A program made the position numbers and the translations under genes. 64,000 bases of DNA from Escherichia coli (GTDB lineage: Bacteria; Pseudomonadota; Gammaproteobacteria; Enterobacterales; Enterobacteriaceae), in the NCBI RefSeq assembly GCF_016026235.1, contig NZ_CP065613.1; one strand, 5' to 3'. Below, piece after piece: positions 13,617 through 18,390 of the stretch (the stretch's first letter is position 1; every line of letters starts with the position of its first letter). The notes below the pieces were generated by a model. It was not told the DNA's origin, did not search any database, and was given only the letters and a program-made list of their open reading frames with translations.

Positions 13617-13712
13617 AATTTATCCCCGCTTTCTCGTCTGCTGTAATATTCCCCACTACACTTCCACTGTTGCGTCAGGCGTTTGTCGCCATACGCTTAC
13701 AGGGTGGCCCGC

Positions 13713-15311
13713 ATGCAAAAAGCACAACGGATCATTAAAACCTATCGCCGTAATCGAATGATTGTTTGTACGATTTGCGCACTCGTTACGCTCGCTTCGA
13801 CCCTGAGCGTGCGATTTATTTCACAGCGTAACTTAAATCAACAACGGGTAGTACAATTCGCCAATCACGCTGTAGAAGAATTAGATAAAGTACTGCTTCC
13901 CCTACAGGCAGGTAGCGAAGTCTTGCTTCCGCTGATTGGTCTGCCCTGCTCTGTCGCCCATTTGCCATTACGTAAACAGGCGGCAAAACTCCAAACTGTG
14001 CGATCCATTGGCCTGGTGCAAGACGGCACACTTTATTGCTCCAGCATTTTTGGTTATCGCAATGTGCCCGTCGTGGACATTCTGGCTGAACTTCCTGCAC
14101 CGCAACCACTTTTACGCCTGACGACCGACCGTGTCCTGATTAAAGGCAGTCCGGTTTTGATTCAATGGACGCCTGCAGCGAGCAGTAGCAATGCTGGGGT
14201 CATGGAGATGATTAACATCGACTTACTGACGGCAATGCTGCTTGAGCCACAACTGCCGCAAATCAGTAGCGCCAGCCTGACGGTGGACAAACGGCATTTG
14301 CTCTATGGTAATGGGCTGGTAGATTCCCTTCCACAACCTGAAGACAATGAAAACTATCAGGTTTCTTCGCAACGCTTTCCTTTTACCATTAACGTTAATG
14401 GTCCGGGGGCTACGGCGCTGGCATGGCACTATCTTCCAACACAATTACCGCTGGCGGTGCTGCTAAGTTTACTGGTGGGCTACATCGCCTGGCTGGCGAC
14501 CGCTTACCGAATGAGCTTTTCCCGCGAAATCAATCTGGGCCTGGCGCAACATGAGTTCGAATTGTTCTGTCAGCCTTTGCTTAATGCGCGCAGCCAGCAA
14601 TGTATTGGTGTAGAGATTTTGCTGCGCTGGAACAATCCGCGTCAGGGCTGGATTTCACCGGATGTGTTTATTCCTATCGCGGAAGAACATCATTTAATTG
14701 TGCCACTAACCCGCTATGTGATGGCAGAAACCATTCGTCAGCGCCATGTTTTCCCGATGAGTAGTCAGTTTCATGTTGGCATTAACGTCGCACCCAGCCA
14801 TTTTCGCCGTGGTGTGCTGATAAAAGATCTCAATCAGTACTGGTTTAGCGCTCACCCGATTCAGCAACTGATCCTCGAAATCACCGAACGCGATGCCTTA
14901 CTGGATGTTGATTATCGGATTGCCCGCGAGCTACATCGTAAAAACGTCAAACTGGCGATTGATGACTTCGGCACCGGCAACAGTTCATTTTCCTGGCTTG
15001 AAACATTACGTCCTGACGTGCTGAAAATTGATAAGTCATTTACCGCAGCTATAGGTTCTGACGCGGTTAACTCGACGGTGACCGATATCATCATCGCGCT
15101 GGGGCAAAGACTGAATATTGAACTGGTGGCGGAGGGCGTGGAAACGCAAGAACAGGCGAAGTATTTGCGCCGTCATGGCGTGCATATTTTGCAAGGGTAT
15201 TTGTACGCACAGCCGATGCCGCTACGTGATTTTCCCAAATGGCTGGCGGGCAGCCAACCGCCGCCCGCCCGGCATAATGGACATATCACGCCCATTATGC
15301 CGTTACGTTAA
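13713..15311 (+). CDS. pdeD: c-di-GMP phosphodiesterase PdeD (YoaD), CSS-motif sensor plus EAL domain
   Basis: Recognised as YoaD; start taken at MQKAQRIIKTY inside the 542-aa track ORF. Confidence 0.85.
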   Translation: MQKAQRIIKTYRRNRMIVCTICALVTLASTLSVRFISQRNLNQQRVVQFANHAVEELDKVLLPLQAGSEVLLPLIGLPCSVAHLPLRKQAAKLQTVRSIGLVQDGTLYCSSIFGYRNVPVVDILAELPAPQPLLRLTTDRVLIKGSPVLIQWTPAASSSNAGVMEMINIDLLTAMLLEPQLPQISSASLTVDKRHLLYGNGLVDSLPQPEDNENYQVSSQRFPFTINVNGPGATALAWHYLPTQLPLAVLLSLLVGYIAWLATAYRMSFSREINLGLAQHEFELFCQPLLNARSQQCIGVEILLRWNNPRQGWISPDVFIPIAEEHHLIVPLTRYVMAETIRQRHVFPMSSQFHVGINVAPSHFRRGVLIKDLNQYWFSAHPIQQLILEITERDALLDVDYRIARELHRKNVKLAIDDFGTGNSSFSWLETLRPDVLKIDKSFTAAIGSDAVNSTVTDIIIALGQRLNIELVAEGVETQEQAKYLRRHGVHILQGYLYAQPMPLRDFPKWLAGSQPPPARHNGHITPIMPLR

Positions 15312-15377
15312 CGCTGATATGACTTTCCGTGTCAAACCGGAATCTCTAATTTTGACGATTTTCTTTTTAGGTTTAAT

Positions 15378-15562
15378 TCCCTGAGGGCGACGTAGCAGTA
15401 AATCCGACGGTGAATCACGCTGATATTCGCGGGTTGGATACCGCATTACAGAGGTCCGTCATATGAGCCTGCCACTTTCTTACGTCGCGAATCAGCTTTG
15501 TTCCGCCGTCGCCAAGCGCTAACGTGGGTTACTCTTGTACTGGGCTACGTCGCCTTCAGGGA
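15378..15562. repeat. 19-bp imperfect inverted repeat pair (18/19) in the 3' non-coding end of the IS110-family element
   Basis: TCCCTGAGGGCGACGTAGC at 15378..15396 and GCTACGTCGCCTTCAGGGA at 15544..15562. Confidence 0.7.
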
Positions 15563-15618
15563 ACTGGTTATTCTCATTTTTTATTTGTGACATTGTGGTT
15601 GTTGTGCGACAGACATTG

Positions 15619-16707
15619 CTATTCGGCCCATATCCCAGATAAAACCCGCCAGCTCACGTGCAACAGCAACAATTGTAATATTGACATTCTTTCCTTTGGC
15701 CTGAAGTTTTCGATACCTCTTACAAAGCCTGAGTTGAGCATCCCATGCTCTGTCAATGACGGGGCGGGGTAAATTTTCCTGCCTTTTTGTATTGCCGGAC
15801 TGATGCGTGCCGGATGACGGTAACTCCACGCTGCCTCGACCAATAGCTTTCTGGCATAGCTGTTTCCGGCTTTGGTAATGCTGCCCTGATGTCTGCTTCC
15901 ACCCGATGAATATTCTGATGGCGTGATACCAAACCATGACATCAGTTGTCGTGGATGTTCAAAACGGGTCAGATCACCCAGTTCAGAAATTAATCCAACC
16001 GCAGTAATAAACTGAATCCCTCGCATGGCTTGCAGCGCCTCTACTACCGGATACAGCCTCCATTCGGTAACGGCCTCCTTCAGGGCGGATTCCAGCCGTT
16101 CACATTGTGCCTGCCGGTCTTCTATTGTACGACGGTGTTCGTCAAAAGCTAATTGTCGCCAGGGACTTTCGAATGAGTATTTGCTGAGCCAGCGTCGGTG
16201 TGCAGGGCCCCAATCTGCTCGCCCGACATAATGGACCCCATGAACCAGAAGAAACGATTTCAGACGTTGCCTTGCATGCCGTAAATCATCGCGGGCAGAT
16301 GCCCATGCCCGGGCCAAATCCCGGAATGCCTCATCTTCAATGCCGGGTACGTAGACAGCAGAAAGATCTCCTGCACGCAGTGAACGCACAAGTCTGATGG
16401 CATCACGGCGATCGGTTTTAACCCGCTCCCCCGGTTTTTTCGGGATAAGTGAGGGGGCGCAGACCATGCAGTCAAAACCGGATTTCACCAGCCGACGATA
16501 AAGTCCATAACCACAGGGCCCCGCTTCATAAACGATACTGACCTGCGATGACTTTGACCTGAGACGTTTACAAAGATTCTGAATATCAGTAGGTGATGTG
16601 CCAATTTTACCCATCAGTTCAACAGGTTCTGAATTGATAGCATAAGCGACAGTAATCGATTCTTTGTGAACATCTAACCCGACGTACAATGTGTTATTGT
16701 TGTTCAT
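15619..16707 (-). CDS. IS110-family transposase (DEDD RuvC-like N-terminal domain, IS116/IS110/IS902 C-terminal domain)
   Basis: N-terminus MNNNNTLYVGLDVHKESITVAYA and C-terminal ITAVGLISELGD...GITPSEYSSGGS...KAGNSYARKLL motifs; start taken at M17 of the 378-aa track ORF. Confidence 0.8.
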   Translation of the reverse strand: MNNNNTLYVGLDVHKESITVAYAINSEPVELMGKIGTSPTDIQNLCKRLRSKSSQVSIVYEAGPCGYGLYRRLVKSGFDCMVCAPSLIPKKPGERVKTDRRDAIRLVRSLRAGDLSAVYVPGIEDEAFRDLARAWASARDDLRHARQRLKSFLLVHGVHYVGRADWGPAHRRWLSKYSFESPWRQLAFDEHRRTIEDRQAQCERLESALKEAVTEWRLYPVVEALQAMRGIQFITAVGLISELGDLTRFEHPRQLMSWFGITPSEYSSGGSRHQGSITKAGNSYARKLLVEAAWSYRHPARISPAIQKGRKIYPAPSLTEHGMLNSGFVRGIENFRPKERMSILQLLLLHVSWRVLSGIWAE

Positions 16708-16833
16708 GCTGGCCTCCGTGGTGGAAATACCGGGGTGTAGCAACAGCTCACCCATGCGGCTCTGACAACGATGTTAACCCGCGTTAAATATCCCACGTTG
16801 GCCAGCATCTGTCTCACGGAAAGTCATACTGCC

Positions 16834-18390
16834 TTACTCATCTTCATCGTGCGCCGGTTGCTCTTTAACAATGCGAACCAGATCAACACGATAATCATTG
16901 GCTTCAATGATGGTGATATGCAGTGGCCCTACATCAATCACATCGCCCACACGGGGAATGTGACCATTTGCCGAGATCACGAGGCCCGCGACCGTCGCGA
17001 TATCATCGTCATCGGCAAGGTGCTCAACATCAAGCGCCTGCTGCAAGGCATGCAAATCTGTACCGCCTTTTACCAGCCAGCCGTCACCATCAGTAATGAT
17101 TTCCGGCGTTTCGTCAGCGTCCGGGAATTCACCCGCAATGGCTTCCAGCACATCCAGCGGCGTGACCAGACCTTGTACCACACCAAACTCGTTGGTCACG
17201 ATAACAAAGCTCCCGCGAGCACGACGCAGCACGCCCAACAGGTTGATCGGATCGAGGGTTTCCGGGACGATAATCGCCGGAGACGCCGAAGCAATCGCCG
17301 CCACATCAACGCCCTCTTCCAGCGCCACCAGCAGTTCTTTAGCACGTACGATTCCGATGATTTCATCCAGTTCACCGCGACATACCGGGAACAGGCTGTG
17401 CGGTGAGGAGAGCAGCTGCTCGCGGATTTCATCTACCCCGAGATTAGCGTCAACCCAGCTTATTTCACCGCGCGGCGTCATGATCCCGCGCAGAGAACGC
17501 GACGCCAGCGTCAGTACGCCGTTAATCATGTAACGTTCTTCTTCGGCAAATGCACCTTCCGGGATCGGCATCGGCATCGGGTTATCGGCATCGTGCTGAA
17601 CATTGGCCTGACGTTTCCCGCCCATCAAACGCAGGATAGCATCGGCAGTACGCGCTCGCAGCGGCAAAGTCGACTGGTGACGAATAAAGTTGCGACGCGC
17701 AATCTGGTTAAACACTTCGATGATGATCGAGAAGCCAATCGCGGCATACAGGTAACCTTTCGGAATGTGGAAACCGAAACCTTCTGCCACCAGACTCAGA
17801 CCAATCATTAACAGGAAGCTCAGACAGAGCACCACCACCGTGGGGTGCTGGTTAACGAATCGCGTCAGCGGTTTGGATGCCAGCAACATAACCGCCATCG
17901 CAATCACTACCGCCGCCATCATCACCGGCAGATGGTTAACCATCCCTACTGCAGTAATTACCGCATCCAACGAGAAGACGGCGTCAAGGATGACAATCTG
18001 TGTGACGACCACCCAGAAACTGGCGTAGCCTTTACCGTGGCCGGAATCATGATCGCGGTTTTCCAGCCGTTCATGCAGTTCGGTTGTTGCTTTGAACAGC
18101 AAGAATATCCCCCCGAACAACATAATCAGGTCGCGTCCGGAGAAGGAGAAATCCATGACGGTAAATAGCGGTTTGGTCAGCGTGACCATCCATGAAATCA
18201 GCGACAGCAGCCCCAGACGCATAATCAGCGCCAGTGATAACCCCAGCAAACGCGCTTTATCGCGTTGTTTTGGCGGCAGTTTGTCAGCAAGAATGGCGAT
18301 GAAGACCAGGTTATCGATACCCAGCACAATTTCGAGAACAACAAGCGTGAGTAGCCCCGCCCAAATTGAGGGGTCCATTAAGAATTCCAT
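16834..18390 (-). CDS. yoaE: TerC-family membrane protein with CBS and CorC/HlyC domains, YoaE
   Basis: 518-aa ORF recognised as YoaE. Confidence 0.9.

Follow-up and report, generated by a model that had tools for sequence, protein, structure and literature searches.

The closest described relatives of the RNA treated here are the bridge RNAs, or seekRNAs, of the IS1111 group of insertion sequences (IS). In ISEc11, ISPa11, ISKpn4 and ISPst6 this RNA lies in a long right end downstream of the DEDD/Transposase_20 recombinase, and a pair of short guides in it reads the target, one guide for each strand, the matches overlapping at the insertion point and the top-strand match lying 5′. Subterminal inverted repeats (7-17 bp) and a long non-coding right end are given as hallmarks of the group in two studies (PMC11208160, PMC11187229), and insertion brings no target duplication beyond the core. 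A further point of reference is IS621 of the IS110 group (Durrant et al. 2024; Hiraizumi et al. 2024, PMC11208158), which has bispecific guides, left and right target guides that both include the core, and the core CT/AG. We analyzed a 64,000-nucleotide stretch of Escherichia coli DNA (contig NZ_CP065613.1; ‘the window’), which carries a copy of ISSso6 with an inverted repeat downstream of its transposase gene. ISSso6 shares all of the properties just listed, and we put the probability at roughly 90% that the repeat is the basal helix (P1) of its bridge RNA, or long seekRNA, of the IS1111 type.

The RNA itself has been catalogued before. ISSso6 is entered with ‘Detected Bridge RNA End: RE’ and ‘IS110 Group: IS1111’ in Supplementary Table 5 of Durrant et al. 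2024 (PMC11208160), and the transposase set of Siddiquee et al. (PMC11187229) includes it. With the ISSso6 bridge RNA listed and this kind of RNA described in 2024, the finding is right and not new. A description of the structure and guides of the ISSso6 RNA was not found in the available text of these studies, nor did we find a paper on ISSso6 that deals with its RNA.

The sequence-only reading of the window had described a 19-bp imperfect inverted repeat with one mismatch, enclosing about 150 nt downstream of the transposase stop of an IS110-family element. Its letters are where it placed them (TCCCTGAGGGCGACGTAGC at 15378-15396 and GCTACGTCGCCTTCAGGGA at 15544-15562), and a repeat search extends the pair by one base to 20 nt, with arms at 15377-15396 and 15544-15563 that are 147 nt apart, 95% complementary and interrupted by one mismatch. 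When all 64 kb of the window were scanned for inverted repeats of 20 nt, with up to one mismatch and up to 300 nt of spacing allowed, this pair was returned and no other; the chance count for such a repeat is 0.001 (analytic), and none arose in 20 first-order Markov simulations. Both arms are indeed 3′ of the transposase stop, whether this is taken from intact copies (15581) or from the end of the frameshifted open reading frame of the window copy (15619).

The region enclosed by the repeat is conserved well beyond Shigella and E. coli. A sensitive blastn search of the right end against plasmids gave, besides copies from these two, matches of 75-83% nucleotide identity in Burkholderia, Paraburkholderia, Cupriavidus, Variovorax, Caballeronia and Mycetohabitans. 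For many of the betaproteobacterial matches the aligned part is about 60-250 of the query, exactly the repeat-bounded domain, and in annotated matches an IS110-family transposase gene adjoins the domain in the same arrangement; the transposase of the nearest relative has 80% amino-acid identity to that of ISSso6. Relatives for structural comparison were gathered with a 20-base conserved pattern from the domain, taking one genome per species. The resulting 117 loci yielded 69 distinct full-length domains, aligned as A2. All 117 matches (L008-L124) fall in the Burkholderiales (Burkholderia, Paraburkholderia, Caballeronia, Cupriavidus, Trinickia, Pararobbsia and Variovorax), and Burkholderia sp. 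PAMC 26561 has 80% transposase identity and 83% RNA identity to ISSso6. Judged by this distribution, the enterobacterial ISSso6 looks like a lone offshoot of a betaproteobacterial IS clade.

Consensus folding of A2 with RNAalifold returned the inverted repeat as the outermost helix. The suggestion that so long a repeat closes a large structured guide-RNA domain is borne out by covariation of the stem in the 69 relatives and of the guides with the flanks. The domain and its helices are as follows.

15377..15563, minus strand: probable bridge RNA or long seekRNA domain, about 187 nt (75-83% identity in Burkholderiales; consensus structure and pair counts; fold z-score -5.95)

15544..15563, minus strand: P1 5′ arm, RNA UUCCCUGAAGGCGACGUAGC (20 pairs, 93.8% of cells paired in 69 sequences)

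15377..15396, minus strand: P1 3′ arm, RNA GCUACGUCGCCCUCAGGGAA (pair counts in 69 sequences; conserved A·C mismatch)

15465..15475, minus strand: 3′ strands of P4 (GUGG) and P3 (GCUC), closing the target-binding arm (RNAalifold; 98.9-100% paired)

15524-15527 and 15531-15534, minus strand: 5′ partners of the P4 and P3 3′ strands (RNAalifold; pair counts)

15487..15512, minus strand: apical hairpin of the target-binding loop, P5 (GCGA/UCGC) and P6 (compensatory changes in both)

15428..15445, minus strand: hairpin P7, UGCGG-UAUCCAAC-CCGCG, apex of the presumed donor-binding region (consensus prediction; invariant by ascertainment, as it lies in the gathering pattern)

Within P1, five pairs vary on both sides and seven on one side only across the 69 sequences; pair 19/203, for example, is GU in 32 sequences, GC in 31 and AU in 6. 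The single mismatch (A2 columns 11/208; 15386 and 15555) is itself conserved, being A·C in 55 of the 69 sequences, A-U in 9 and G-C in 3, and it could be an A+·C wobble or a mark for recognition or processing. Inside P1, helices P2-P4 lead to an internal loop that is capped by the P5/P6 hairpin, where pair 72/82 reads AU in 32 sequences, CG in 20 and GC in 4. The whole structure of 43 pairs has 96.2% of its cells paired, and sliding the 3′ partners by 1-3 columns lowers this to 36-42%; ten of its pairs show double-sided changes. Minimum free energy (MFE) folds of the single sequence were set aside; they recover P1 and give interior pairs (such as CGACGG/CCGUCG) unlike those of the covariation-supported consensus. 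Read on the minus strand, the helices contain far more G·U than A·C cells, 53 versus 23 in P1, 70 versus 14 in the inner helices and 123 versus 37 overall, an excess that favours folding of the transposase-sense strand.

The local gene order is sdaA, pdeD (13683-15311, plus strand), the insertion and yoaE (16834-18390, minus strand). In BL21 and essentially all of 5,426 complete E. coli genomes, pdeD and yoaE are convergent with 3 bp between them, and the empty site in BL21 reads ...gttacgttaacgCTtactcatc... (...aacgCTtactc...). The CT that occurs once there stands on both sides of the IS in the window, at 15314-15315 and 16833-16834 with 1517 bp between the copies, and nothing beyond this core dinucleotide is duplicated.

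15316..16834, minus strand: ISSso6 copy, 1519 bp including one core copy; left end 16834 and right end 15316 in IS orientation (empty-site comparison)

15314..15315: core dinucleotide of the right-end junction, CT, or AG in IS orientation (empty-site comparison)

16833..16834: core dinucleotide of the left-end junction, CT, or AG in IS orientation (empty-site comparison)

15318..15331: right-end copy of the subterminal inverted repeat, TATGACTTTCCGTG on the plus strand (14 bp, perfect with 16815-16828; kept in relatives)

16815..16828: left-end copy of the subterminal inverted repeat, CACGGAAAGTCATA on the plus strand (14 bp, perfect with 15318-15331; kept in relatives)

In IS orientation the ends of ISSso6 read AG-GCAG-TATGACTTTCCGTG... 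and ...CACGGAAAGTCATA-TC-AG, so that 4 nt separate the subterminal repeat from the core copy on the left and 2 nt on the right; these repeats are conserved in 36 complete relatives. The right end is non-coding for 265 nt past the stop of the intact gene (15581 to 15316) and the left end for about 125 nt; in the window copy both arms of the long repeat fall within a non-coding right end of 303 nt. Copies identical to the window element bear the RefSeq name ‘IS110-like element ISSso6 family transposase’. By its subterminal inverted repeats of 14 bp and its extended non-coding region past the transposase gene, which are the IS1111 hallmarks, and by its protein domains and site-specific insertion, ISSso6 belongs to the IS1111 group within the IS110 family. 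Alignment to the empty site places both arms of the long repeat inside the IS right end; the idea that they mark an element end does not hold, as the IS ends at 15316 and 16834 lie outside the repeat and the subterminal inverted repeats occupy 15318-15331 and 16815-16828.

The insertion falls within the 3 bp that separate the stop codons of the convergent genes pdeD and yoaE (15309-15316 and 16832-16836) and leaves both reading frames intact. None of the 5,426 complete E. coli genomes has a record of ISSso6 at this locus, the best match spanning only the IS part, so that the window probably derives from Shigella or from an unusual lineage of E. coli. The last codons of pdeD contain an 11-bp perfect inverted repeat, CGGCATAATGG/CCATTATGCCG, at 15270-15302, which is the source of spurious weak Rfam matches (mir-2001, rliI). 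It may form the terminator of the convergently transcribed yoaE, whose transcript would here reach it only after crossing the IS.

Segments in the interior of the domain covary with the DNA flanking each element. The target-binding loop holds two guides.

15515..15522, minus strand: right target guide on the 5′ strand of this loop, RNA UUAGCGCU (complementary to IS-sense core AG and right flank CG(C/T)TAA)

15479..15483, minus strand: left target guide on the 3′ strand of this loop, RNA GUAAG (same letters as left flank GTA and core AG)

In 61 distinct pairs of RNA and flank, columns 56-62 of the right guide are antiparallel-complementary to the core and the first five right-flank bases at a mean of 5.82 of 7 positions (6.16 with wobble), whereas permuted RNA-flank pairings gave 2.97±0.16 of 7 with a maximum of 3.49 in 2000 permutations. 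This 5′ strand of the loop is hypervariable in relatives: there are 43 distinct guide heptamers, of which 33 match their own flank at 6 or more of 7 positions, and some of the seeming misses are register shifts. The left guide behaves likewise, with columns 96-98 (followed by AG) identical to left-flank positions -3 to -1 at 2.32 of 3 positions (permuted 1.07±0.15, n=34). Along the RNA the guide for the right flank (top strand) comes first, at nt 44-51, and that for the left flank (bottom strand) second, at nt 83-87. Among ISSso6-type copies whose junctions were read, namely the window copy and 11 others, several of which share a flank, GTA-AG stands on the left in 12 of 12, and the right flank is CG(C/T)(T/C)(A/G)A in 9 of 12 (the window and 8 of the 11), L132-L134 lacking it. 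The site of L128 is a perfect AGCGCTAA, and the window site, AGCGTTAA, departs from it in a single G·T wobble.

Some insertions deserve separate mention. L132-L134 represent a frameshifted ISSso6 variant that adjoins a CaiF/GrlA regulator gene and has a right flank, TGAATGTG, that mismatches its own guide. Natural retargeting was considered for these 98%-identical copies and discarded, their guide being essentially unchanged; we read their site as an off-target insertion or a later rearrangement. Five further copies (L125, L126, L130, L131 and L002) have the right flank CGTCAACGGAGCACCGTATT, or a close variant of it, within remnants of IS66-family tnpC, and their left flanks differ while all ending in GTA-AG. 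This pattern suggests that ISSso6 favours a target inside IS66-family elements and that its copies later recombined with one another or underwent one-ended rearrangements.

Two regularities were seen at the core and next to it. The last left-flank base is complementary to column 63 of A2 (71%) and identical to columns 98 (82%) and 102 (74%), which correspond to window positions 15514, 15481 and 15477, and a motif repeats after the left guide as UAAG-A-AAG or UAG-A-UAG. In relatives with a U in the target guide across from the second core base, AA stands at the right junction and AG at the left (15 right junctions; seven complete elements, L045, L056, L063, L073, L074, L099 and L116), and the donor guide has AG in all of these. 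From such junctions it appears that the left one keeps the donor core and the right one the target core, which bears on the position of the strand cuts relative to the core.

The donor side explains most of a second repeat. A 10-bp direct repeat, ACGCTGATAT, occurs at 15311-15320 and 15417-15426 as the sequence-only reading had stated, which went on to propose a relation to the insertion junction.

15311..15320, plus strand: first copy of the direct repeat, consisting of flank ACG, core CT and IS end GATAT (spans the junction of flank and IS right end)

15419..15426, minus strand: donor guide AUAUCAG and one handshake-like base, C (within the internal direct-repeat copy; right end ATATC and core AG)

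15395..15400, minus strand: candidate left-end guide, RNA UACUGC, complementary to the left-end terminus GCAGTA (sequence match; abuts or overlaps the top of P1)

As RNA, the internal copy (15417-15426) reads AUAUCAGCGU and begins with AUAUCAG, which is near-invariant in all relatives. In 54 of 61 cases, against 44% expected, the base that follows is the same as the first base of the right flank; the second base after AUAUCAG showed no relation to the flank in the same comparison. The proposed relation thus stands for 8 of the 10 bases, which the guide logic of AUAUCAG plus a base tracking the flank accounts for, and fails for the last two (GU), which we judge coincidental. For the left end, UACUGC is a candidate donor guide on grounds of complementarity. 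Comparing all RNA columns with the left-end terminus and both subterminal repeats gave weak signals only, which are probably phylogenetic. In many IS1111 elements the donor-binding bases lie in a multi-loop instead of a simple internal loop, according to Durrant et al. (PMC11208160), and the ISSso6 pattern fits this placement.

Taken as a bridge RNA, the domain would be made from the transposase-sense (window minus) strand and start about 17 nt past the intact stop codon, and P1 would join the ends of a domain of about 187 nt carrying two functional regions. In the target-binding loop, UUAGCGCU would pair with the IS-sense strand over the core AG and the right flank, and GUAAG with the opposite strand over the left flank and the core; in the donor-reading region, AUAUCAG would match the right end and the core, and the next base the first right-flank base. 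By analogy with IS621 and ISEc11, a tetramer of the DEDD/Tnp recombinase would then align the circularised element with a GTA-AG-CGYYRA site, and strands would be exchanged at the core dinucleotide. We infer transcription, processing, protein binding and catalysis of the ISSso6 system from such analogous elements.

The recombinase that would act with this RNA is recognizable in the window and decayed there.

15581..16708, minus strand: transposase/recombinase gene, DEDD_Tnp_IS110 and Transposase_20 (Pfam; alignment to the intact 1520-bp copy L125, 375 aa)

Pfam recognizes the N-terminal, RuvC-like DEDD domain (PF01548, E = 2.7e-11) and the C-terminal Transposase_20 domain (PF02371, E = 8.7e-24). 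Compared with intact 1520-bp copies, the window copy has lost 1 nt from a T run near 15784 (15780-15790) and is frameshifted; its open reading frame of 378 aa (16755-15619) is a frameshift chimera whose last 70 or so residues are out of frame, the intact protein having 375 aa. At 15541 the window has T (A in the RNA) where L125, two 98%-identical variants and nearly all relatives have C (G in the RNA). The change turns a conserved G-C pair of P2 into A·C, and by this measure the RNA of the window copy is slightly degraded, too.

How the RNA would be expressed is suggested by the arrangement of the element. It is probably the tail of the transposase transcript, trimmed afterwards, because no sigma-70 consensus promoter stands ahead of the domain. 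At this locus read-through from yoaE is also possible as a source, since yoaE runs toward the element up to its left junction. An outward-facing hexamer that may belong to a promoter lies near the right end.

15330..15335, minus strand: outward-facing TTGACA, resembling a -35 element (20 nt from the right end, as in 90 of 98 relatives)

In a circularised element this hexamer would stand 17 nt upstream of the left-end CAGTAT, and the predicted circle junction is ...GTCATATC-AG-GCAGTATGAC.... A junction promoter TTGACA-N17-CAGTAT would be in line with ISEc11 and IS621 (PMC11187229, PMC11208160).

Several points weigh against the bridge RNA interpretation. The existence of the transcript, its ends and its processing are all deduced from DNA sequence, a promoter scan found no sigma-70 consensus promoter directly upstream of the domain, and the putative -10 of the junction promoter, CAGTAT, is weak (3/6 match to TATAAT). 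With its frameshifted transposase and the G-to-A change in P2, the window copy may be inactive on its own. The candidate UACUGC shows no covariation; both it and its partner are nearly invariant, and the variable first left-end base is unlinked to it. The relatives in A2 share ancestry and were gathered by a pattern that fixes P7, which means that the shuffle statistics given above are not probabilities. The plus strand folds about as well as the minus strand (-82.9 versus -78.4 kcal/mol), and the A·C mismatch becomes G·U there. Finally, Rfam 15 holds no matching family: cmscan at E ≤ 10 over 15000-17200 returned three weak chance matches, all outside the domain.

P1 might have a task beyond closing the RNA. 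Because no promoter was found upstream, because the helix measures about two turns and because IS4321 has no such helix, the near-perfect 20 bp might form a processing and assembly module specific to this clade, an extension of the bridge RNA interpretation that we hold tentatively and regard as unlikely. A double-strand-specific ribonuclease such as RNase III would excise the RNA at P1 from the 3′ end of the transposase transcript, the A·C mismatch would set or limit the cut, and the excised RNA would serve transposase in trans, for instance for decayed copies such as that of the window. IS4321, the only other IS1111 member compared, has inverted-repeat arms of at most 10 nt in its right end as opposed to the 20-bp P1 of ISSso6, and from this one comparison the 20-bp closing helix may be a feature of the ISSso6 clade.

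An alternative without any guide is that the hairpin terminates the transposase mRNA or stabilises its 3′ end. Its position 17 nt past the intact stop codon and its richness in G+C would suit such a role, and P1 may protect or define RNA ends as a secondary function. As the sole explanation it is highly improbable: no U tract follows the 3′ arm (AAUUAAACCUAAAAAG), a terminator scan gave no call, and termination needs no conserved interior of 147 nt with loops that covary with the flanks.

The repeat could also work as DNA, as a protein-binding palindrome or a cruciform recognized by the transposase or a host factor. Both strands form the hairpin equally well, and IS1111 elements do use DNA inverted repeats, namely the subterminal ones. 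These, however, are already accounted for at 15318-15331 and 16815-16828, and a spacing of 147 nt between the arms is too great for a simple dimer site. Changes in the arms moreover keep pairing and not sequence, including the strand-specific G·U described above (53 against 23 A·C), and the arms enclose more covarying helices as well as the guide loops, which leaves little credence for a site that acts as DNA.

Equally hard to credit is a functional RNA from the plus strand of the window, such as an antisense regulator of the IS. The slightly lower MFE of that strand and its G·U in place of the conserved A·C mismatch would speak for it. The opposite follows from the preponderance of G·U over A·C across all helices in the minus-strand reading (123 versus 37 cells), and the order of the target guides is the one reported for transposase-sense IS1111 seekRNAs. 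Those sequenced from four IS1111 elements are all from the sense strand, according to Siddiquee et al. (PMC11187229).

Least credible of all is the proposal that the repeat forms the ends of an element resembling a miniature inverted-repeat transposable element (MITE) inside the IS, or a true IS end: long inverted repeats about 190 bp apart do resemble MITE termini, some database matches have no annotated gene and L007 (Cupriavidus H16 pHG1) has no intact transposase gene next to it, but the IS ends are fixed 61 nt past the outer arm, the repeat is a single copy in the window with no target duplication around it, its distance to the right end and to the transposase gene is constant in the complete relatives examined, the interior guides covary with the flanks of the whole IS, as those of a separate element would not, and the 3′ arm of L007 is decayed as in an IS remnant. 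In every neighbourhood inspected the domain adjoins an IS110-family transposase gene, intact or decayed, so that the suggestion of an embedded miniature element fell away; a separate mobile unit was not seen in any of these neighbourhoods, solitary copies not having been systematically surveyed.

As the bridge RNA of an IS1111 element, the ISSso6 domain also shows differences from described systems. Its transposase has 375 aa, where 330-350 aa is given for typical IS1111 members, and its RNA is predicted from DNA sequence, whereas the seekRNAs of four IS1111 elements were sequenced. In IS621 the RNA is encoded upstream of the gene, in the left end, and in ISSso6 it is in the right end. The published IS621 RNA reportedly has two loops on separate arms and no long closing helix. 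The bases of the ISSso6 RNA that read the donor belong to strands of a multi-branched region, and UACUGC is only a candidate for its second donor guide. The handshake guide in the donor-binding loop (DBL) of IS621 pairs with non-cognate (target) DNA, and the extension of the ISSso6 donor guide behaves like it; the ISSso6 signal amounts to one base. Read in the flipped frame, with CT as the core, ISSso6 would have the guide order of IS621, with the left target guide 5′, the right target guide 3′ and the right donor guide followed by the handshake base. Another IS110-family element, ISPpu9 of Pseudomonas putida, resembles ISSso6 in having a small RNA gene, Ssr9, downstream of its transposase gene (PMC12288879). 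Ssr9 reportedly also exists as solitary copies.

The chief remaining value of the finding lies in the detailed guide map and the role of the long P1. The relatives provide a natural set of 43 guides with matching flanks from one compact IS1111-type system, and P1 gives clear RNA boundaries; together these could help the engineering of bridge recombinases. For the organisms that carry ISSso6, an unannotated stretch of 190 nt in Shigella and enteroinvasive E. coli becomes readable code. The guides UUAGCGCU and GUAAG predict insertion of ISSso6 at xGTA-AG-CGYYRA, which aids the reading of IS-driven genome decay and rearrangement in these pathogens.

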